Part shown: positions 1 to 10,138 of the stretch, piece by piece
Position numbering within the stretch: the first letter of the stretch is position 1
Layout of the letters: every line of letters begins with the position of its first letter
The notes under the pieces: model-generated
Databases searched by the model: none
Seen by the model: the letters and a program-made list of their open reading frames with translations, nothing else
Told to the model about the DNA's origin: nothing
Program-made: the position numbers and the translations under genes
From: Caulobacter sp.
GTDB taxonomy: Bacteria; Pseudomonadota; Alphaproteobacteria; Caulobacterales; Caulobacteraceae
Reading direction: 5' to 3'
NCBI RefSeq assembly: GCF_049283275.1
Contig: NZ_JBAPVS010000142.1
Coordinates: forward strand, 31,752-95,751
DNA length: 64,000 nucleotides

Positions 1-177
1 CATGACGGTGCGACGGTCAGGACAGGGGCAGCTAATTGAACGGTGTAGGGACATCGGGGGGCTCCATCGGCGGTCTTGGTCGTATCTCGGCTTCGGAGCC
101 GCCGCTGCGCCATCCGGTGAAACCCGTGGCTCTGAATCCCGGCGGACCAACGGCGGGACGCCGGCTCATGCGTAGCC

Positions 178-330
178 TCAGACCACGGCGGCGGGTCGCG
201 TGACGCGCAGGAGGCCCAGGCGGAACGGCAGCGCGCCCAGGACGGCGCCGGCCAGAGGGGTCACGATGAAGAGCCAGAGCTGTCCGAACCCGGTGGTCGT
301 GGTCTCGATCGAGATGTTGCCGATGTTGAC
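178..330 (-). pseudogene. possible C-terminal remnant of an MIP/aquaporin-family gene
   Basis: Minus-strand frame ends GQLWLFIVTPLAGAVLGALPFR, resembling the last helix of AqpZ-like MIPs. No convincing NPA boxes or start upstream. Confidence 0.3.
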
Positions 331-499
331 CCGCGTGCGGCGACCCTCCACCGCGTCGCGCCGTCCGGCTGATCCGGGCCCCAGGCGAGGGTTTCGCCCG
401 ATGGCGCGGCCCTGCCCAACTCGAATGATCAAGGGCGAGCGGGAGCGCCCGCCCGGGCGGGCCCTGCTGGGAGGACATGCGGTGTCTGGAAGCGAACCT

Positions 500-1450
500 A
501 TGTGGAAGCATACGCTGGCGGCTGGCGTCGCCATCATGGTGCTGGCGGCAATGGGGCCGGCGCACGGACAGCGCCTGCCGCCGGGCGTGACGCCCGAGCG
601 CCTGGCCACCGACAACAAGCTTTTCCTGAGCCTGGCGATCAAGGGGCTGCACTGGGAGGAGCCGGCCGAGCCGGTGAAGATCGCTGGCCCCCTCTACTTC
701 GTCGGGACCCGCGGGCTGGGCGCATTCATCTTCGCCACGTCCGATGGCCTCGTCCTGATGAACACGGGCATGCCATCGTCTGGCCCTATGATTGCGGCGT
801 CGATCCGCAAGCTGGGCTTCAAGCCGGAAGACATCCGGCTGATGATCAACGGCCATGCCCACATAGACCACGCCGGCGCCTTCGCCTACTTCAAGACCCT
901 CTCCCCCAGGGCCGAACTCGCGGTCATGCGCGAGGACGTCGCGGCGATGGAGAGCGGCGACAAGGGCGACTTCAAGTACGCCGACGACTTCGTCTACGCG
1001 CCGGCGAAGGTGGACCGCATGCTGCGCGACGGCGAGCGCATCCAGCTGGGAGATGTGACCCTCACCGCCCTGCTTACGCCAGGCCACACCCGCGGCGCCA
1101 CCACCTGGATCGCCGAGATCGTCGACGACGGACGGCCGCTGACCGTCGTGTTCCCGGATGGCGCCGGCTTCAATCCGGGATACCGCATCACGAAGGATCC
1201 ATCCTACCCCGGCATCGAAGCCGATTACCGACGAACGCATCACACACTGGAGATGCTGAAGCCGGACATCTGGCTGGCCCAGCACAACGAGTACTACGAT
1301 TTAGAGGGTAAGCGCGCGCGGGCGCGGACGGATGGCGTCAGGGCCTGGATCGATCCGGAAGGGTACCGCCGCTGGGTGGCGAGCAAGAACCTCGCGTTCG
1401 AGACCCTGGTCGCTCGAGAATCGGGGGCTCAAGCGCCCGACGGCGAGTGA
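500..1450 (+). CDS. subclass B3 metallo-beta-lactamase-like protein, secreted
   Basis: ATG at 500 gives signal peptide MWKHTLAAGVAIMVLAAMGPAHG. Zinc motifs HAHIDH, TPGHT and AQH; N-terminal EPVKIAGPLYFVGT is typical of B3 enzymes. Confidence 0.85.
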   Translation: MWKHTLAAGVAIMVLAAMGPAHGQRLPPGVTPERLATDNKLFLSLAIKGLHWEEPAEPVKIAGPLYFVGTRGLGAFIFATSDGLVLMNTGMPSSGPMIAASIRKLGFKPEDIRLMINGHAHIDHAGAFAYFKTLSPRAELAVMREDVAAMESGDKGDFKYADDFVYAPAKVDRMLRDGERIQLGDVTLTALLTPGHTRGATTWIAEIVDDGRPLTVVFPDGAGFNPGYRITKDPSYPGIEADYRRTHHTLEMLKPDIWLAQHNEYYDLEGKRARARTDGVRAWIDPEGYRRWVASKNLAFETLVARESGAQAPDGE

Positions 1451-1460
1451 GGAGCCGGCC

Positions 1461-2657
1461 ATGCTCCCTCGGTATCCAGCTGTCGGATCCGCTTCCGCGG
1501 CGCTGGTCCTGGTGTCGGCTGTCTCGCTTCCCGCCGCAGCGCAGGAGACGGACCGGCTTAAGGCAAATGCCTCATGGACGCAGTTCGCCGGCGGGCTCGT
1601 CGGTGGTGACGGCGATCAGGACGGTCGCTATGGCGGGTACGTGGCGGCCGAGTTCGAGATAGACGGCGGCGCGGTCGGCCTCTGGGAAGGCGCCTCCATC
1701 AATGTCTACCCAGAGTACATCTACGGTCGGAACGTCAACGGCAGCGCCTCCGGTCCCGTCTTCCCCGTCAATGTCGGCCTGGCCTACCCCAGCAAAGACC
1801 GTGATGACTTCGACGTGTCGCTGTTCGTGCAGCAGCGGATTGGTCGCGCCACCGTGCAGTTCGGCAAGATCAACAGCATGCGCCGCGGGCGCGCGACGCC
1901 GATGATCAGCGGCGGCGGCCTTGAAGGCTTCCAGCACACGGTGCTGGCCTCTCCGCCCTCCATCATAGGCCAGCCGGTCCGCTTTGGCGTGATGGCCACC
2001 ATCCCGCTGGATGGGCCCACGTTGAGCCTTGGCGTTTGGGACCCGGAGTCGACCATCAACAAGACCGGCTTCGAGCATCCCTTCGAGACGGGCGTAGCCG
2101 GCTATGCCCAGTTGGCCTTCCCGGTGACGCTCGGCGGACGAAGCGGCAGCCAGAAGATCGCCGTCTACGGCAGCACGAAGCGCGGCTTAGACCTGCAGGA
2201 CGTACCCGAGGTGATCCTGCCGCCGGAGAGCGAAACGGTCCTGGGGCAGAAGAAGGGCCAATGGCATGTCCAGTACAGCTTCCACCAGCATCTGCACGAG
2301 GCGTCCGCGCCCGGGGGGCGGGGATGGGGGGTGTTCGGACGCCTGGGTGTGTGGGACGGCAATCCCACGCCGTTCCGATGGCAGGCGGCGCTGGGGGTAA
2401 GCGGAGAAGCGCCCTTCGCCTCACGACCGCAGGACCGGTTCGGCGTCGGCGTGTTCCGCACCCAGCTCAGCGCAACGTTGCGTCAGGGACTGGCCCCCAT
2501 CGTCGTGCTGGATGACGAAACCGGCGCTGAGATCTTCTATACCCTGGCCGTCGGCGGACCACTGCGCTTGACGGCCAGCGCGGAATGGGTCGATCCGGCG
2601 ATCGCCGCGCGAGGCGAACTTGTCTACATCGGCCTCAGAGCCAAGCTTGAGTTCTAG
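1461..2657 (+). CDS. carbohydrate-selective porin, OprB family
   Basis: GGAG RBS directly after the MBL stop, signal peptide, alternating beta-strand pattern, QDRFGVG motif and C-terminal ...GLRAKLEF with terminal Phe. Confidence 0.8.
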   Translation: MLPRYPAVGSASAALVLVSAVSLPAAAQETDRLKANASWTQFAGGLVGGDGDQDGRYGGYVAAEFEIDGGAVGLWEGASINVYPEYIYGRNVNGSASGPVFPVNVGLAYPSKDRDDFDVSLFVQQRIGRATVQFGKINSMRRGRATPMISGGGLEGFQHTVLASPPSIIGQPVRFGVMATIPLDGPTLSLGVWDPESTINKTGFEHPFETGVAGYAQLAFPVTLGGRSGSQKIAVYGSTKRGLDLQDVPEVILPPESETVLGQKKGQWHVQYSFHQHLHEASAPGGRGWGVFGRLGVWDGNPTPFRWQAALGVSGEAPFASRPQDRFGVGVFRTQLSATLRQGLAPIVVLDDETGAEIFYTLAVGGPLRLTASAEWVDPAIAARGELVYIGLRAKLEF

Positions 2658-2660
2658 GCT

Positions 2661-3053
2661 TCAGCGCTCCCCCCAAAGTTCGATCCTGGCCTGGCCCCGC
2701 GCGTTACCCGGGCGTCTATAGGTGAGCTCGACGCGCCGGATGAACCGGTCCCGGCCCCGCAGATCGATGCGGCGCGACCAGCCGCCCTGCTCGATGCGGA
2801 AGCGCAGCGGGATATGGTCGGGCGCGCCGTTGCTGTAGATCACGTCGAGGTCATAGACGTAGATCGCGTTGCCTTTGACCAGCAGGCGAATATGGTCGAA
2901 AGCCGCTCGCGCTGCTGTCACGACGATCACGTCGTGGTCCAGGTTCCACCGGACTGTCCGGGCGCCCAAGAACACCCGGCGGTCCTGAGTGGCCCCCGCG
3001 CCGGCGGAGAGCAGCCAGCCTGCGCCGCAAAGCACAAAGGTACGACGATACAT
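2661..3053 (-). CDS. DUF2541 (YaaI-like) secreted protein
   Basis: MYRRTF twin-Arg-like leader, then LGARTV...DHDVIVV...IRLLVKGNAIYVYDLDVIYSNG...SRRIDL pattern; GGGAGA RBS before ATG 3053. Confidence 0.7.
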   Translation of the reverse strand: MYRRTFVLCGAGWLLSAGAGATQDRRVFLGARTVRWNLDHDVIVVTAARAAFDHIRLLVKGNAIYVYDLDVIYSNGAPDHIPLRFRIEQGGWSRRIDLRGRDRFIRRVELTYRRPGNARGQARIELWGER

Positions 3054-3193
3054 GGTGTCTTCTCCCTCGGTGCGGCCGACAGGGGGGGCAATCGGCGCCA
3101 CGTGAAGTGGGTGAACGCGCTGCCGCCCGGCCGCACCAGCAGCCTCGCCCGAACCTCACCCGACAACCATCGGGTGAAGGCCCCAGGCGAGCC

Positions 3194-4003
3194 TCATCTG
3201 AGAGGCGGCGCGAATGACGCCTTCAAGGTCTCCATGGCCTGCTGGGACTCGATGACGCCGCCCATCTTCGGCTCATCGATATCGATTACGAGGACAAGGG
3301 AGAGCACCGTCAGCCCGATAAGCGTGGCGCCGGCCAAGCGCGCGCCGGGCCCCGCCAGCAGACGTCCGAGCAGAGCAGCCGTGGCCAGAAAGTAGGCCAG
3401 CAGCACCAGGAACACCTCCCCCGGCACGCGTGCGAGCCGCGCGGTTCGGCGCGCAGCTTCCAAGTTCAGCACTTCGTTCACAGCGTCGAGGAAGGGGACG
3501 GCGAACGGCGTGGAGCGCACACTGGGAAACGCCGCTTCGGTCGCTTGCCACAGCTCAGCGGCGAGACGATCGTTGACCGCGAGCGCGGTCCGGACCTCGC
3601 CAGGCCGAGCAGTGGCCAGCCGAATCCGCGCCTCGACGTAATCCTCCAACAGTTGCGCCATGACGGTGCGATGCGGCTCATCCAGGAGGCGGGCGCGAAG
3701 GTGCGCCGTACCGATCGCGTTAGCCTCATCCAACACCAGGGCGCGGCGGGTCTGGTAGCCGTCCACGGCAAGGAAGAAGGTGAAGCCCAGCAACAGGGCT
3801 AGCAGCCCAAGGATGGCCGCAACGACATAGGCTTCCTGGGTCTGCTGGTGGTTCGCCTCGACAGGGTCCGGCTGCGCCTGCGGGCGAGGTGGCCGGCGCA
3901 TGGCGACCCCACCTAGCCAAGCGCCCGCGGCGGCGCAGAGCAGCAGCAGGGCGAGAAGCCATGGCGGCCAGGTGGCGACCTGATCCAACAGCCGCGCGGC
4001 CAT
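3194..4003 (-). CDS. DUF4239 / bestrophin-like membrane protein
   Basis: LGLLALLLGFTF...RRALVLDEANAIGTAHLRA and C-terminal VIDIDEP motif; four hydrophobic segments. ATG lies 2 nt after the upstream stop. Confidence 0.7.
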   Translation of the reverse strand: MAARLLDQVATWPPWLLALLLLCAAAGAWLGGVAMRRPPRPQAQPDPVEANHQQTQEAYVVAAILGLLALLLGFTFFLAVDGYQTRRALVLDEANAIGTAHLRARLLDEPHRTVMAQLLEDYVEARIRLATARPGEVRTALAVNDRLAAELWQATEAAFPSVRSTPFAVPFLDAVNEVLNLEAARRTARLARVPGEVFLVLLAYFLATAALLGRLLAGPGARLAGATLIGLTVLSLVLVIDIDEPKMGGVIESQQAMETLKASFAPPLR

Positions 4004-4005
4004 GC

Positions 4006-4581
4006 TTACCAACGAAGGGTGACGCCGGAGCGTCGGGCGATCCGGCGGGTGAGTTCGAAGGAGGCCGCAGCGATGGCGCGAGTGTTGGGGTCCGCCCCTG
4101 GAGCGGCGCCGTTTCTCGGCGCCAGATCGCCCTCCACACGATTTAGCGCCACGTAAAGCCGGTCGACGGCCGCACGATCCTCAGGCTCCGTCAGCAGCGC
4201 GTCCATCTGCAGCGCTTTCCAGCGAAGCATCGCAATGGTGACGACGGCGGCCCGCTCTTCGGCCTGGCAGGATTGCGGCGCCCGCTGGCGGCAGGCTCGC
4301 AGATCGGCCACCTCGGAGATCAACTCCCCTGTTGCGGCGTCGAGGTTGGCGAGGAACTCGATAACGAACGTCGCTTTCAACTTCTGCTGTTCGAACGCGT
4401 GCCCGACAATGGGCGCCAGGACTATGGTGGCGACAACGGTGCCCAGCACGGTCGCCACATGCAGCCACAGCGGCACCTTGTCCTGGAACAGCCCTCGCCA
4501 CACCCAGCGCGCGATCTGCCGCAGTCGTTCCGGCGCGGTCGGTCCGCGCGTTTCGGCGACCTCATGCGCCGCTCCACCCAT
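4006..4581 (-). CDS. hypothetical single-TM membrane protein
   Basis: 191-aa ORF with one hydrophobic helix followed by a helical domain; translationally coupled to the DUF4239 gene. Confidence 0.6.
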   Translation of the reverse strand: MGGAAHEVAETRGPTAPERLRQIARWVWRGLFQDKVPLWLHVATVLGTVVATIVLAPIVGHAFEQQKLKATFVIEFLANLDAATGELISEVADLRACRQRAPQSCQAEERAAVVTIAMLRWKALQMDALLTEPEDRAAVDRLYVALNRVEGDLAPRNGAAPGADPNTRAIAAASFELTRRIARRSGVTLRW

Positions 4582-4754
4582 GCTAGCCTCCAGATCCGAG
4601 AACCCGGAGTATGGAGCCGGGGCGGACGCGCCGCCCTCCGGTCAAACCCTTAGCTTCGGGCCATGGCGCTGCTCGCGGCTCAGGAATGCGGGTTAGGCCC
4701 GATGGGAACAGGCGGCGCTAGCCCTATACTGAACGACAAAGCCGAGAGGCCGGC

Positions 4755-5387
4755 ATGCTTCGTATCCTCATCGCCGACGATCATGAGATGGTCCGTAAGG
4801 GCATCCGCGAGCTAATCCAGGATCATCCGGGCTGGGATGTGTGCGGCGAAGCTGGCGACGGGCTCACTGCGCTGGAGCTGGCGCTCAAGGAGCGTCCCGA
4901 CATCGCCATCCTGGATATCTCGCTTCCGCTGCTGAACGGCGTCGCGGCTACGCGGCGCCTGGTGCATGAGTGTCCACGTACGCGCGTGCTACTCTACACG
5001 ATGCTCGACGACGAGGAGAGCGTCACCAACGGCTTGGCGGCCGGCGCGCGGGGCTACGTGCTGAAGACCGACAGCGCCGAGCATCTGACCTCGGCGATCT
5101 CGGCGCTGGGCGCCAACCGACCCTTCTTCTCGTCCCTCGTCTCAGAGATCCTGCTCGAGACGGTCAACCACCGCAAACGCAGCCGCCTGGACAGCTTCAC
5201 AGACCGCGAGTTGCAGGTCGCGCAACTGATCGCCGAGGGCAACTCGAACAAGGCGACGGCCCGCACCCTCGGCATAAGCATCAAGACCGTCGAGAGCCAT
5301 CGCGCCTCGGCCATGCGCAAGGCGGGCGTGCACACCGCGCCCGAGCTGGTGCGCTTCGCCATCAAGCACAAGCTGATCCAGGCCTGA
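4755..5387 (+). CDS. NarL/LuxR-family DNA-binding response regulator
   Basis: REC domain (ADDH, phospho-acceptor LDISLP, GYVLK) plus LuxR HTH (FTDRELQVAQLIAEGNSNK...KTVESHR). Confidence 0.95.
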   Translation: MLRILIADDHEMVRKGIRELIQDHPGWDVCGEAGDGLTALELALKERPDIAILDISLPLLNGVAATRRLVHECPRTRVLLYTMLDDEESVTNGLAAGARGYVLKTDSAEHLTSAISALGANRPFFSSLVSEILLETVNHRKRSRLDSFTDRELQVAQLIAEGNSNKATARTLGISIKTVESHRASAMRKAGVHTAPELVRFAIKHKLIQA

Positions 5388-5455
5388 CTGGGAGTTCACC
5401 CGATAGGCCGCGCCCCAGCGGCGGCACAGTATCGAGATGTCCGCGATCTTTCCCC

Positions 5456-6925
5456 CTATGCGGATCTCGGGCCATTACGCCCCGTGCGGGGCGCGGCGGC
5501 GGGCGACCGCTCATCTTGTCCTCGCACACTTGTCGGCGGACGAGCGGTCGCCGGCTTCTGCGCCGGCCAGCGCGCCACCAAGGCCGCGCCCGCGCAGCCG
5601 CTGCGAATCTGCAACTGGCCCCCGAGTTGGCGGATGCGCGAGTGCATGGCGTGCAGGCCCTCCCCGAGGCGCCGCCGGCCTGCTGGAAAGCCGCGACCGT
5701 CGTCTCGCACCTCGCACTGAACGACGCCCCGAGCGACGCCCGCCCGGATGCAGACATGCGCCGCCCCCGAGTGGCGGTGGATGTTGACCAGCGCCTCCTG
5801 CACCATGCGGAACAGGGCGCGCTGGCCGTCTTGGGACAGCGCGCGCGGCGGCAACCGGACGTCCACCTCCATCTCAATTCGAGCGCGCCGTGCGAAACCC
5901 TCGGCCAGAGCCCGCACCGCCGCGCCGATCGGCTCGCCGCCGGAGCTGGGTGGATGGATCAAGAACGAGAGGGTGCGCACGTCGCGCTGGGCATCGGCGA
6001 TGCTGGCGGCGAGTTCGTCCAACACGCTTGCGGCCTCACGCCCGTCCGCGACCAACGAGCGGAGACGCGACACGGCCAGGCCGATCGCAACCAGTTGTTG
6101 GCCGGTGGAGTCATGCAGTTCCATGGCGATGCGCCGCCGTTCGGCCTCGCGGGCGGCGATTATGCGCTCCGTGGCGCGCTTGGCCTGCGCCCGGGCCTGG
6201 GCCAGTTCCGTGACGTCCTGCAGCAGCAACAGCCATGCATCGCCGTTGCGGTGGCGGAAGGGAACAAGCCGAACATCCAAGCGCCGTCCCTGACCGCCCG
6301 CGCAACTGCCTTCGAATTCGCGCGCCCCAGCGTGCAGCGCGCGGCGGGCCCGGCGGAAGAGGCGGCTCAGACCAGGGACGACTCCGCCCTCCGCGCCCAG
6401 GAGGTCGGCGCCCGGAGTGGCGGTCGGGGCGATGCCAATACTCGCAAAGTCATGCCAGGCGGCGTTGGCGTCCAACAGGCGACCATCCCGGTCCAAGATC
6501 GTCATCGGCCAACTCAGCACGTCGAACGCTGGTGCAAGGACTGATGGCCGGCGTAAGGGTCGCGGACGACCGCCACTCGGCTGAAAGATCAGGTCGGCTC
6601 CGCCGGCCCGGGCCTGCACGAGCACCTCGATCGAGGCGCCCGGTCGGAAAGACGATGGGAAAGTGGCACGGCTCGCTTCGCCGAAGTCGAACGCCTGCTG
6701 CACGGCGTAGGAAACCCGCCGCGGCAGTCCGGCCTCGCGGATATCGCGCCCAAGGGTCACGGTTTCGTCGAGGCCCAGCCAGATCTGGGCGGCGCGGCTG
6801 ATCCCGGTCACCAGCCAGAGCCGGTCGATTCCGATGACGCAGTCGGGCGCATCGGCGAAGGGCTGGGGGTCCGGCCACGGATCGCCGGCGGACAGTGCAA
6901 CGTCTTCAGGCAGGACCTGCTGCAC
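5456..6925 (-). CDS. cytoplasmic PAS-domain sensor histidine kinase (HisKA_3, NarX/UhpB type)
   Basis: ERRRIAMELHDSTGQ H-box, LFRMVQEALVNIHRHS N-box, DDGRGF G1 box; two PAS-like segments and no TM helix. GTG start uncertain. Confidence 0.88.
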   Translation of the reverse strand: MQQVLPEDVALSAGDPWPDPQPFADAPDCVIGIDRLWLVTGISRAAQIWLGLDETVTLGRDIREAGLPRRVSYAVQQAFDFGEASRATFPSSFRPGASIEVLVQARAGGADLIFQPSGGRPRPLRRPSVLAPAFDVLSWPMTILDRDGRLLDANAAWHDFASIGIAPTATPGADLLGAEGGVVPGLSRLFRRARRALHAGAREFEGSCAGGQGRRLDVRLVPFRHRNGDAWLLLLQDVTELAQARAQAKRATERIIAAREAERRRIAMELHDSTGQQLVAIGLAVSRLRSLVADGREAASVLDELAASIADAQRDVRTLSFLIHPPSSGGEPIGAAVRALAEGFARRARIEMEVDVRLPPRALSQDGQRALFRMVQEALVNIHRHSGAAHVCIRAGVARGVVQCEVRDDGRGFPAGRRRLGEGLHAMHSRIRQLGGQLQIRSGCAGAALVARWPAQKPATARPPTSVRGQDERSPAAAPRTGRNGPRSA

Positions 6926-7057
6926 GTTCGGCGCCTCTCTGCGTCAAAGTAACAAGACTACGGCGAAGATTTAACTGGAAGTTGTGCCTACTCGCGCGAA
7001 AGACACTCGCCAATGCACGCGACGGCCGACGCTTTCCGAGGACGCTGGCATAAGCAA

Positions 7058-7073
7058 TCAGGTGATCACCTGA
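7058..7073. promoter_or_regulatory. perfect 16-bp palindrome TCAGGTGATCACCTGA
   Basis: Exact inverted repeat in the intergenic region upstream of the kinase gene. Confidence 0.4.
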
Positions 7074-7079
7074 AGGGCG

Positions 7080-7304
7080 TCAACCCAGGGGCGTTTCCTG
7101 CGAGCCTTCCACGGCGATGACCAAGTCCAGCACCGCTTGCGCCAACGTGCTTGCGCGGTTGGCCGTGAACGCGGCCTCATGGCGGTCCAGCGTGCGCGTG
7201 CGAGCGGCCCGAACGAGGCGTTCCGCGCTCACGGGCAAGCCTTCCGCGGCCTGGGCGATCCGACGAGCGTGTCCGAGCCAGTCGATCGGAACGCGGGCCC
7301 TCAT
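7080..7304 (-). CDS. small hypothetical protein (74 aa)
   Basis: AGGAGAG RBS ahead of ATG 7304; helical-looking ORF MRARVPIDWLGHARRIAQAAE...; divergent from LysR. Confidence 0.5.
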   Translation of the reverse strand: MRARVPIDWLGHARRIAQAAEGLPVSAERLVRAARTRTLDRHEAAFTANRASTLAQAVLDLVIAVEGSQETPLG

Positions 7305-7429
7305 CGGCTCTCTCCTGACTGCGCTGTCCTGCGTCGTTCCGCCGGCCCCATCCTCTCGCTCCCTATCTGGCGCGGCGGAGGTAACACTGGCGCCCGAGAG
7401 GTGGGTCACGAAATTCTTTCGCCACAGGG

Positions 7430-7444
7430 ATAGCCAACGACTAT
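7430..7444. promoter_or_regulatory. LysR-type recognition box ATAG-N7-CTAT
   Basis: ATAGCCAACGACTAT is a T-N11-A dyad, 21 nt before the LysR start. Confidence 0.65.
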
Positions 7445-7465
7445 TATCCCGCCGGAGACGCCACA

Positions 7466-8383
7466 ATGTTCTCGCCCCTCGACCTAAGGCATCTGGAACA
7501 GATCGCCGCCATCCGGCGGGCCGGAGGGTTCAACGGCGCGGCGCGCGCCCTCGGCATCTCGCAGCCGACGCTGAGCAAGAGCATCGCCCGCCTGGAGGCG
7601 CGCCTTGGCATGAAGCTGTTCGAACGCGGCGCAAGGGGCGCGACGCCTACGGCCTACGCTAACTATCTCGGCGAGCGCGCGGAGGCGCTGCTGCAGAGCG
7701 CGGCTCAGCTGCTACGAGAGGCGCAGCAGATGGTCGACGGCGACTCTGGGCAAGTCCGGATCGGCGTCGGGCCCGTGGCGCGTCTCGCCCTCCTGCCGCA
7801 GTTGGTCAGCCTCGCTGCTGCGCGATTTCCGCGATTGCAGCTTTCTACCTTGCAGAGCAGTCCCCTGACATTGCTGGCGCGGCTGCTGAACGGTGAGTCC
7901 GACGTGATCTTCGTGCACCATGAGTACGCGGAAAGTCATGGCGACCTGATCCGCGCCAAGATCCTCACGGACGACATCATCGTCGTGGCGCGGGCCGGTC
8001 ATCCTGCAGGCGATCGCGGCCCCCTCGCACCTCGCGACCTCCTGGGTTACGCTGCGGCAACGCCGACCGTGACGCCGGCGATCCGGGCCTGGCTGGGCGC
8101 AGCCTCGCCGGACACCGATGGCCATGCCGCTGCGTTGTTCTCGGATGACTACAGCGTGATCGCGCAGCGGTTGCTCGATTCCGATTTGATCGCCTTCGCG
8201 CCTCGGTTCGCCGTGGCCCGGGAACTCGCCGAGGGCGCCTTCATCGAGCTGCCGATCACGCGACCCGCGCCGGCCTACGAATGTTGGATGCTCACCACCC
8301 CGGAACTCTGGCGCTCACCCGTCATCCGAGCGCTTGCCGACGCCGCACGTGAGGCGAGTGAGGCCCCGCGCGGTACGCGATGA
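7466..8383 (+). CDS. LysR-family transcriptional regulator
   Basis: N-terminal HTH (LRHLEQI...FNGAARALGISQPTLSKSIARLEARLGMKLFER) and a PBP2 substrate domain. Confidence 0.95.
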   Translation: MFSPLDLRHLEQIAAIRRAGGFNGAARALGISQPTLSKSIARLEARLGMKLFERGARGATPTAYANYLGERAEALLQSAAQLLREAQQMVDGDSGQVRIGVGPVARLALLPQLVSLAAARFPRLQLSTLQSSPLTLLARLLNGESDVIFVHHEYAESHGDLIRAKILTDDIIVVARAGHPAGDRGPLAPRDLLGYAAATPTVTPAIRAWLGAASPDTDGHAAALFSDDYSVIAQRLLDSDLIAFAPRFAVARELAEGAFIELPITRPAPAYECWMLTTPELWRSPVIRALADAAREASEAPRGTR

Positions 8384-8520
8384 CGGCCAAGGCGATCGAG
8401 TTGGTAGCGCCCCTGCCCATCTGTCCAGATTGCCGGCGCGGGATTCGGATTGTGCGCCCTCTTCCCATCAGACCCTGCTCGGCATCGCGGCAGGCTCTCG
8501 CAACCTGGCGCAGACGCGCC

Positions 8521-8590
8521 CCCATTACTCATCAATTAAACTCAATAAGTATTTGATTTTATTATATTTTATCCCTTATTCCCACTCGAT
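8521..8590 (-). mobile_element. putative att junction of a guaA-associated genomic island
   Basis: guaA ends ATCGAGTGGGAATAA (contains the GAGTGGGA core reported for guaA-3' islands), followed by about 50 nt at 12-22% GC including TAAGTATTTGATTTT. No integrase in the window. Confidence 0.55.
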
Positions 8591-10138
8591 GGTGCCGGGG
8601 GGCTTGGAAGTCACGTCATAGACCACGCGGTTGACGCCGCGGACCTCGTTGATGATCCGGGTGGCGGTCTTGCCCAGCACGTCCCAGGGGAATTCGAAGA
8701 AGTCGGCGGTCATGCCGTCGGTCGAGGTCACCGCGCGCAAGGCCAGGACGTTCTCGTAGGTGCGGGCGTCGCCCATCACCCCGACCGTCTTGACGGGAAG
8801 CAGCACGGCGAAGGCCTGCCAGATCTTGTCGTAGAGGCCGGCATTGCGGATCTCTTCCAGATAGATGGCGTCGGCGTCTTGCAGCACCTTGACCTTCTCG
8901 GGCGTGATGTCGCCGGGGATGCGGATGGCCAGGCCCGGGCCGGGGAACGGGTGGCGGCCGACGAAGGCCGGGGCCAGGCCCAGCTCGACGCCCAGGGCGC
9001 GGACCTCGTCCTTGAACAGCTCGCGCAGCGGCTCGACCAGTTTCAGCTTCATGAAGTCCGGCAGCCCGCCGACATTGTGGTGGCTCTTGATCACCGCCGA
9101 GGGGCCGCCGCGGGCCGAGACGCTCTCGACCACGTCGGGATACAGCGTGCCCTGGGCCAGGAAGTCGGCGCCGTCGATCTTGGCGGCCTCGCGGTCGAAG
9201 ATGTCGATGAACTTGCCGCCGATGATCTTGCGCTTGGTCTCCGGATCGCTGACCTCGGCCAGGGCCCCGAGGAACTCGGCGCCGGCGTCCACGTGGATCA
9301 GTGGAATGTTGTAGTGGTCGCGGAACAGGGTCACGACCTGATCGGCCTCGTTCTTGCGCAGCAGGCCGGTGTCGACGAACACGCAGGTCAGCTGGGCGCC
9401 GATCGCCTCGTGGATCAGGACGGCCGCCACCGAGCTGTCGACGCCGCCGGACAGGCCGCAGATCACCTTGCCGTCGCCGACCTGGTCGCGAATCTTCTGG
9501 ACCATCTCCTGGCGGAACGCCGCCATGGTCCAGTCGCCGGTCAGGCCGGCGATGTTGAACAGGAAGTTCTTGTAGATCTTCGAGCCGTTGACCGTGTGCA
9601 CGACCTCGGGGTGGAACTGCACGCCGTAAATCTTGCGGACGTCATTGGCGATGGCGGCGAACGGCGCGCCGGTCGAGGTGGCGATCACCTCGAAGCCGTC
9701 AGGGATGGCGGTGACGCGGTCACCGTGGCTCATCCAGACCGTTTCCAGCCCGCCGATGTCGGCCAGACCCTGGAACAGCGGGCTCTGCTTGCCGATGGTC
9801 AGTTCGGCGCGGCCGAACTCGCCCGCGTGGCCGCCCTCGACCTTGCCGCCCAGCACGTCGCACAGCAGTTGCTCGCCGTAGCAGACGCAGAGCATCGGCA
9901 CGCCCAGCTCGAACAGCTTGGTCCCGATGCGGGGACTGTCGGCCTCCAGCACGCTGGCCGGGCCGCCCGACAGGATGATGGCGCTGGGGGCGTAGGCGTC
10001 GACCATGGCCTCGGCCTTGTCGAACGGATGGATCTCGCAATAGACGCCGGCCTCGCGCACCCGGCGGGCGATCAGCTGGGTCACCTGGCTCCCGAAATCG
10101 ACGATCAGAACGCGCTGGTGATGGGTTTCGGCAGTCAT
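8576..10138 (-). CDS. guaA: GMP synthase (glutamine-hydrolysing)
   Basis: [41 protein letters not shown]-terminal KPPGTIEWE. Confidence 0.99.

Follow-up and report, generated by a model that had tools for sequence, protein, structure and literature searches.

In the 64,000-nucleotide stretch of Caulobacter sp. DNA analysed here (contig NZ_JBAPVS010000142.1, positions 31,752 to 95,751; the whole stretch is called the window), two adjacent genes encode a putatively exported hydrolase of the subclass-B3 metallo-beta-lactamase (MBL) type, P0001, and an OprB-family outer-membrane porin, P0002 (Table 1). With a probability of about 0.6, they are best viewed as a horizontally acquired two-gene unit in which a solute imported through the OprB-type porin would be hydrolysed by the B3 enzyme in the periplasm. 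A first-pass annotation of positions 500 to 2,657 had described a B3-type MBL with a full set of zinc ligands, an OprB porin gene whose ribosome-binding GGAG directly follows the MBL stop codon, and an accessory location for the pair; its coordinates and sequence statements are exact, and these three points are borne out by the data below.

By curated hidden Markov model (HMM), zinc ligands and predicted fold, P0001 falls into subclass B3, the exception being Ser221, a residue that is common in the subclass but not universal. NF033105, the NCBIfam equivalog model of subclass B3, gives P0001 289.6 bits (cut-off 240) over profile positions 1–257 of 257. Alignment with FEZ-1 and BJP-1 places the six zinc ligands at H119, H121 and H196 (Zn1) and at D123, H124 and H262 (Zn2), and all six are unchanged across the 22 clade members aligned; the protein contains no cysteine. 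FEZ-1 (E = 4.6e-57) and BJP-1 (E = 4.4e-51) are the best sequence matches in the PDB, and the same two enzymes are the best Foldseek matches (template modelling (TM) score 0.84) of an AlphaFold2 (AF2) model built on the 22 clade members (predicted local distance difference test (pLDDT) 76.7), the top 50 PDB matches of which are all B3 or B3-like. A B3 look-alike of the HARLDQ-motif kind was ruled out, as P0001 has HAHIDH in that place and scores only 186.9 on the corresponding model (cut-off 350). The class of the enzyme is in itself ordinary, since standard annotation already gives such proteins the subclass-B3 label. Because P0001 combines canonical ligands, an equivalog-level score and lactamase relatives, it would very probably hydrolyse some beta-lactams in vitro.

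On direct reading, the N-terminus of P0001, MWKHTLAAGVAIMVLAAMGPAHG followed by Q, resembles a Sec signal peptide, and equivalent AxA sites followed by Q are present in its homologs; the N-terminal helix of the AF2 model has low confidence. Translation could alternatively begin at a second ATG, in frame at 476, but the leader lengths of the homologs in the clade alignment match the start at 500.

The first-pass annotation had also drawn attention to the sequence FPDGAG in the region where a Ser is often conserved. The alignment with FEZ-1, with numbering in the standard class B beta-lactamase (BBL) scheme fixed by the Y228A entry 1l9y, confirms Gly at position 221, where FEZ-1 has Ser, and shows that Asn225 and Tyr228 are retained. 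This feature is not peculiar to P0001: P219, D220, G221, G223, N225, P226, G227 and Y228 are all invariant in the 22-member alignment, and for this reason FPDGAG can be regarded as a signature of the clade. About 40% of the columns of that alignment are invariant, including NGHAHIDHAG, PGHTRG, FPDGAGFNPGYR and PDIWLAQHNEYYD. The GOB enzymes are not known to carry Ser221 either, and Gly221 does not disqualify P0001 from subclass B3. The 90% consensus is not followed by P0001 in 9 columns (clade median 4), none of them a metal ligand and most of them conservative exchanges; the protein looks intact and under constraint.

The second gene encodes a protein that matches the Pfam OprB profile (PF04966) over positions 2–372 of 372, with 90.9 bits (gathering threshold 22.9) and E = 1.4e-25, and that has a signal-like N-terminus and a C-terminal Phe. 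Its AF2 model (pLDDT 79.6) contains 16 strands and finds OprB of Pseudomonas putida (4gey) in Foldseek with E = 2.1e-21 and a TM score of 0.76, the next non-OprB structure following at E = 3e-10; a PDB sequence search with P0002 returned no chain at E 0.01. Close relatives are rare, with 6 in a large protein collection and 7 loci in metagenome contigs (scanned from an alignment of four porin sequences), all at 37–61% identity. A longer open reading frame (ORF) starting at ATG 1332 (441 aa) was rejected, as its 43 additional residues are not signal-like and the homologs begin near 1461.

The junction between the two genes is very tight. The MBL frame opens with the ATG at 500 and ends with TGA at 1448–1450; GGAG follows at 1451–1454 and, 6 nt further on, the ATG of the porin gene at 1461, which leaves a gap of 10 nt. 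As the next gene (2661–3101) is convergent, the layout is operon-like and the unit appears to comprise two genes only. One transcript for both is likely, given the 10-nt spacing, the Shine-Dalgarno sequence and the convergent gene downstream. The TAG of the porin gene (2655–2657) lies 3 nt from the facing stop, an interval that has no room for a terminator; the convergent product (146 aa) has a signal-like N-terminus and is without a Pfam match. An Rfam scan of positions 1–3300 gave nothing usable. It could be argued instead that the genes are adjacent but separately expressed, the GGAG serving only as the ribosome site of a porin gene with an internal promoter. A sigma-70 scan of positions 1–3300 located no promoter upstream of either gene, so that host promoters evidently escape such a scan, and in the locus L090, described below, an interval of 288 nt that includes a small ORF separates the two genes. 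Separate expression is nevertheless quite improbable in the window, where the genes share a strand with a gap of 10 nt, a scan found no terminator-like hairpin in positions 1–3300 and the convergent gene closes the unit.

Taken as a whole, the proposed process can be viewed as follows: the MBL and porin genes would be transcribed together and both products exported, the porin to be inserted into the outer membrane, the enzyme with its two zinc ions to remain in the periplasm; the porin would then admit a small solute, which the enzyme would hydrolyse there. Most probably this solute is a beta-lactam or else a cyclic amide or ester of similar kind, although no neighbouring gene gives any indication of it. 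That channel and enzyme act on the same molecule has somewhat less than an even chance of being correct.

P0001 belongs to an unnamed clade that, judged from its sequences, is widespread in soil bacteria and unusually conserved across phyla. Among some 5.8 billion proteins searched, more than 1,500 homologs were detected; the 120 matches listed are all 68–75% identical to P0001 and of similar length. Those listed come mostly from soil metagenomes, and the few named ones are 'subclass B3 metallo-beta-lactamase' from Vicinamibacterales, Bradyrhizobium and Xanthomonadales. When each species was represented by one genome, a scan identified 54 clade loci in Acidobacteriota, Hyphomicrobiales (Bradyrhizobium, Mesorhizobium, Neorhizobium, Kaistia and Bosea), Burkholderiales and Gammaproteobacteria, nearly all 62–77% identical to P0001, the divergent L051 being 56% identical. 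Two records, titled as Patescibacteria (L013) and Akkermansia (L014) metagenome-assembled genomes, carry a clade MBL gene with a DUF1254/DUF1214 neighbour; mis-binning of the contigs is more probable here than a genuine host, because the genes are 69–70% identical to proteobacterial ones and the L013 contig is only 2.8 kb long (that of L014 is 90 kb).

The neighbours of these genes were compared at 57 loci ascertained through the MBL, namely the 54 species genomes and three long contigs of the closest metagenomic matches; the counts rely on a home-made gene caller and tblastn seeds and, since some flanks are cut, are lower bounds. Among the 98 immediately flanking genes, Pfam identified 17 DUF1254/DUF1214, 7 OprB (including that of the window) and 2 Phenol_MetA_deg genes, every other family occurring at most twice; second neighbours bring AraC-type regulators and more DUF1254 genes. 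In the seed-based table, an OprB gene on the MBL strand adjoins the MBL gene at 6 of the 57 loci, downstream as in the window at L025 and upstream at L033, L040, L041, L043 and L049. A channel gene of the COG4313/Phenol_MetA_deg family is adjacent, again on the same strand, at five (L029, L031, L044, L082 and L085), besides a likely remnant in L084 and a gene 3 kb away in L048. Either family of outer-membrane channels thus adjoins the MBL gene at 11 of the 57 loci. A DUF1254/DUF1214 gene is found at 23, always on the MBL strand and mostly at a spacing of 6–80 nt; this family, and not a porin, is the commonest partner of the clade.

The five loci with an upstream porin share one layout, in which a gene for an AraC-type regulator (Arabinose_bd plus HTH_18), a gene for a large OprB-family porin (about 460–600 aa as called) and the B3 MBL gene lie on one strand. 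Their hosts are cultured strains of Kaistia, Pseudorhizobium, Bradyrhizobium (SRS-191) and Bosea; Kaistia hirudinis DSM 25966 and Bosea sp. TND4EK4 are examples of cultured bacteria with the porin-MBL pair.

The association with channels seems to have arisen more than once. On the maximum-likelihood tree of the clade, OprB adjacency requires four changes, at least two of them forced by strongly supported branches, and COG4313 adjacency also requires four, three of them so forced, while the neighbour labels are more clustered than in shuffles. The adjacent porins are only 28–44% identical, and both gene orders occur. The sisters of the window MBL (support 100/97) are L082, with the order MBL-COG4313-DUF1254/1214, and L084, with the order MBL-(remnant)-DUF1254/1214; the OprB gene of the window therefore occupies the slot held by a COG4313 channel gene in the sister loci. 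The genome of the window contains no homolog of the COG4313 or DUF1254 seeds and only two OprB-like genes, for which reason an MBL-OprB adjacency would arise there by chance with a frequency of about 0.1%. At 12 native CAU-type B3 loci of the genus, no channel neighbour is present within 1.5 kb. Our reading of these data is that enzymes of the clade have time and again been joined by whichever uptake channel was available, and that the porin is not a dedicated partner.

Approached from the porin side, the association is weak. An MBL gene is present in only one of about seven informative loci of the porin subfamily, L090, where an MBL 60% identical to P0001 is followed by a 67-aa ORF and then by an OprB 44% identical to P0002, whereas the closest relative of P0002 (61%) lies between a TetR gene and recJ. 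The MBL-OprB pair recurs elsewhere, as the first-pass annotation had expected, at L090 and at the six clade loci named above. The same annotation had proposed that the pair scavenges a specific substrate; the presence of two unrelated channel families at 11 of 57 clade loci and at 0 of 12 CAU-type loci speaks for this idea. Taken overall, the interpretation given in that annotation is partly supported. An import-processing role fits better than pure self-defence, because of the influx channels, the DUF partner, the AraC-type regulators of one sub-clade and the conservation across phyla.

Several points weigh against import followed by hydrolysis. The scarcity of MBL genes on the porin side is one of them, and the dependence of the neighbour counts on a home-made gene caller and tblastn seeds, with flanks cut at some loci, is another. 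About half of the clade loci have neither a channel nor a DUF neighbour, and the clade enzyme clearly works without a dedicated channel. A porin gene next to a resistance gene could also be a mere hitch-hiker in an accessory region. Finally, the Gly residues at 221 and 223, together with the BJP-1-like N-terminal helix, could confer poor or altered beta-lactam activity, and loop 225–231 of the P0001 model has low confidence.

Some of these points would also suit a plain accessory resistance gene directed against the beta-lactams of neighbours, the porin gene being unrelated downstream cargo and any co-transcription functionless. P0001 is a B3 equivalog with intact ligands whose closest solved relatives are genuine beta-lactamases, the contexts of the clade genes are highly variable, as those of stand-alone resistance genes are, with about half lacking both kinds of partner, and the porin subfamily mostly lives without an MBL. 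However, opening an influx pore next to a beta-lactamase makes little intuitive sense for resistance, and same-strand adjacency to two unrelated channel families arose several times in the clade and is absent from CAU-type loci. Moreover, the genome already holds a native CAU-family enzyme, and an identity of 62–77% across phyla is much tighter than that between the named B3 resistance families. A plain resistance gene is an unlikely explanation.

Alternatively, the clade might not consist of beta-lactamases in nature, and a channel, a B3-fold hydrolase and a DUF1254/DUF1214 protein would form a periplasmic module for a non-antibiotic compound such as a lactone, an ester or another cyclic amide, the window carrying a reduced, DUF-less version. 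The predominance and close spacing of DUF1254/DUF1214 are in keeping with this, as are the AraC-type regulators, equipped with a ligand-binding domain, whose genes lie ahead of the porin and MBL genes in Kaistia, Bosea, Pseudorhizobium and Bradyrhizobium SRS-191, and the replacement of Ser221 by Gly throughout the clade. Some B3 enzymes (MIM-1 and MIM-2) have been reported as good lactonases. On the other hand, those B3 enzymes with canonical HHH/DHH ligands that have been assayed to date cleave beta-lactams; no neighbour points to a substrate, and the DUF gene is missing from the window and from the genome. The DUF1254/DUF1214 family is itself without known function in the PDB, where its only relative is uncharacterised, and in the literature searched, which gave nothing. 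COG4313 proteins, for their part, are 12-strand outer-membrane channels implicated in the uptake of hydrophobic molecules (PMC4493636), which also agrees with such a module. On balance, this alternative appears rather doubtful, and import of a lactam-like solute followed by its hydrolysis is preferred.

A broader proposal, which must be regarded as tentative and somewhat unlikely, is that the Gly221 clade provides the hydrolase of a recurrent periplasmic uptake-processing module that does not primarily serve antibiotic resistance and that acts on an environmental substrate of the lactam or lactone type. It is no less speculative that this module would use an interchangeable channel family, often together with DUF1254/DUF1214, and that the window represents a swap of OprB for COG4313. 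If true, the proposal would open a concrete, testable route to what environmental B3 MBLs do in nature and would place DUF1254/DUF1214 in a functional context for the first time. B3 MBLs are abundant in soil, and their role there bears on the origin of clinical carbapenemases. The clade is unusual in that it is tightly conserved across phyla, moves between lineages and is repeatedly placed by uptake channels and the DUF; its repeated association with them is moderately interesting and testable, the enzyme, the porin and DUF1254/DUF1214 making up a small set of proteins for joint biochemistry. A literature search on the clade motifs and on B3-porin operons gave no relevant paper, and no description of the association of the clade with the two channel families and DUF1254/DUF1214 was found in the literature searched.

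As regards the origin of the pair, the window sits in a 104-kb contig of an assembly of 4.3 Mb in 376 contigs, which was compared with 36 genomes of the same genus. DNA homology to all 36 congeners (78–93%) sets in at 8573–8580, within 8 bases of the stop codon of guaA (8576–10138, minus strand), whereas positions 1–8570 have no syntenic DNA match in any of them. Because homology starts so sharply at the 3' end of guaA, the contig can be assigned to the genus and the pair to strain-specific DNA. The best matches of P0001 in the congeners are only 33–41% identical and correspond to the native B3 enzyme of the genus, P0002 has a single relative in the genus (38% identical), and the closest MBLs to P0001 are found in other classes and phyla. 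The absence of the gene from 36 of 36 congeners and the sharp onset of homology at guaA thus indicate clearly that the pair was acquired horizontally. A mis-binned contig as the source of the foreign gene was ruled out by the 78–93% identity of guaA and the DNA beyond it to all 36 congeners. The GC content at third codon positions of the two genes (0.86 and 0.81) is like that of the rest of the accessory stretch, that of guaA and guaB being higher (0.89–0.94). The native B3 gene of the genome lies on another contig (C83:4695-5480); the CAU/MBL1b model gives it 545.7 bits (cut-off 500), and it is 37% identical to P0001. The genome therefore holds two B3 MBL genes of differing origin.

The first-pass annotation had further suggested a mobile resistance determinant, an idea to which the acquisition of the gene lends no more than weak support. 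A Pfam scan of the main ORFs of positions 1–8575 detected no recombinase domain, and no integrase, transposase or insertion sequence was seen there; neither an integrase nor a direct repeat of the guaA end was seen in positions 1–9000, and no bounding repeats were found. Among 72,556 plasmids there is no clade member at 60% identity or more, the best plasmid match being 36% identical. The att repeats or integrase at guaA that would mark a simple island were not found, and the left side is part of a larger variable stretch. In terms of resistance surveillance, this is of modest concern: the environmental Caulobacter-like genome has acquired a second B3 gene, and nothing points to its mobility by plasmid or insertion sequence.

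The variable stretch extends about 33 kb leftwards, synteny being recovered at contig position 7.5 kb, which corresponds to a point 140 kb from guaA in one congener (G003); the matches of congeners in between are partial and only 67–76% identical, and this side is strain-variable as well. At contig positions of about 7.5–31.7 kb (C142; L081 and L092), a minus-strand ORF of more than 3,700 aa encodes an RTX-type adhesin and is accompanied by HlyD-type and ABC-type genes of type I secretion; next come a gene of the Omp85 superfamily and one of the Ysc84/SYLF type, the latter ending at about window position 3.

Just upstream of the MBL gene, the remnant of an aquaporin gene, QLWLFIVTPLAGAVLGALPFRLGLLRV (the last ~30 codons), was identified by comparison with a congener, in which the aquaporin gene, with its NPA motif, is intact (L100:472-1167). 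No intact copy or other homolog of it was found elsewhere in the assembly, and a Pfam scan of the 64-aa remnant gave no match; it marks a rearrangement junction. The palindrome GCCCGCCCGGGCGGGC, also upstream of the MBL gene, occurs as a single copy in the 4.3-Mb assembly and is possibly a candidate operator or a leftover hairpin.

Table 1. Features of the MBL-porin unit and its surroundings, in window positions.
Feature	Position	Strand	Basis
Strain-specific accessory DNA holding the pair	1..8575		ends exactly at guaA 3' end
3' remnant of aquaporin (MIP) gene	178..270	-	63% identity over 27 aa to congener C-terminus
Perfect 16-bp palindrome	447..462		direct reading; 38 nt upstream of MBL start
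Gene for putatively exported subclass-B3 MBL-type hydrolase (P0001, 316 aa)	500..1450	+	NF033105, FEZ-1/BJP-1 matches, homologs
Predicted Sec signal peptide, residues 1-23 (cleaved after AHG)	500..568	+	translation read directly
HAHIDH motif (residues 119-124; His116, His118, Asp120 and His121 in BBL numbering)	854..871	+	FEZ-1/BJP-1 alignment; clade-invariant
His196 codon, third Zn1 ligand, in PGHTRG	1085..1087	+	reading plus FEZ-1 and clade alignments
FPDGAG, Gly at BBL 221 and 223, clade signature	1151..1168	+	aligned to FEZ-1 with Y228 as anchor
His263-equivalent codon (residue 262), third Zn2 ligand, in WLAQHNEYYD	1283..1285	+	reading plus FEZ-1 and clade alignments
GGAG Shine-Dalgarno sequence of porin gene	1451..1454	+	direct reading; abuts MBL stop, 6 nt to ATG
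OprB-family 16-strand outer-membrane porin gene (P0002, 398 aa)	1461..2657	+	Pfam PF04966, AF2, Foldseek

Among named enzymes, P0001 stays below the curated cut-offs of all the B3 families listed, which are FEZ, BJP, SPG, SPR, CSR, L1, GOB, POM, ESP, MSI, PEDO, PAM, SMB, CPS, THIN, PJM, AIM and EFM, as well as CAU/MBL1b; a further 14 families matching at E <= 0.01, whose cut-offs were not compared, are all expected below 101.5 bits, the lowest score listed. The best score is that on the FEZ model, 190.5 bits against a cut-off of 600, and P0001 is accordingly not a member of that family. FEZ-1 of Legionella gormanii (PDB 5w90 and 1l9y) nevertheless shares with it the six ligands and the fold (TM 0.84), with 38% identity over 258 columns in Foldseek. 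It differs by its cysteines (in RCDIF and TGCKNY), which have no counterpart in P0001, and by Ser221, where P0001 has Gly, Gly223 being present in both; P0001 is also longer at the N-terminus by about 28 residues. BJP-1 of Bradyrhizobium (blr6230, PDB 3lvz) is the top fold match (E = 4.5e-27, TM 0.84, 36% identity), and its N-terminal helix segment aligns with the conserved stretch KLFLSLAxK..W of the clade. However, the BJP model gives P0001 only 185 bits (cut-off 600), the 219–228 loop reads FCSGTVALNR in BJP-1 and PDGAGFNPGYR in P0001, and the Bradyrhizobium genes of the clade, at most 75% identical to P0001, are distinct from BJP-1. The native Caulobacter enzyme CAU-1/Mbl1b, with which a comparison had been suggested in the first-pass annotation, shares the subclass and the ligand set. 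Beyond the subclass, a relationship was ruled out: P0001 is 37% identical to it and scores 188.2 bits on NF000427 (cut-off 500), very long branches separate the two kinds in the tree, and the true CAU gene of the genome is the one on C83.

The porin resembles OprB of P. putida (4gey) in the full-length Pfam profile, the 16-strand barrel and the outstanding fold match. It differs in sequence (16% identity) and is shorter (398 aa, signal peptide included, while the chain in 4gey has 420 residues), and its gene lies outside any sugar-uptake cluster. The COG4313/Phenol_MetA_deg channels, exemplified by Pput2725, TcpY and SphA (PMC4493636), belong to an unrelated 12-strand family for hydrophobic substrates, whereas P0002 is a 16-strand OprB. 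They occupy, however, the same slot beside the closest relatives of P0001, and this likeness suggests that their role would be the same as that of the window porin, namely to let a solute in for a periplasmic enzyme.

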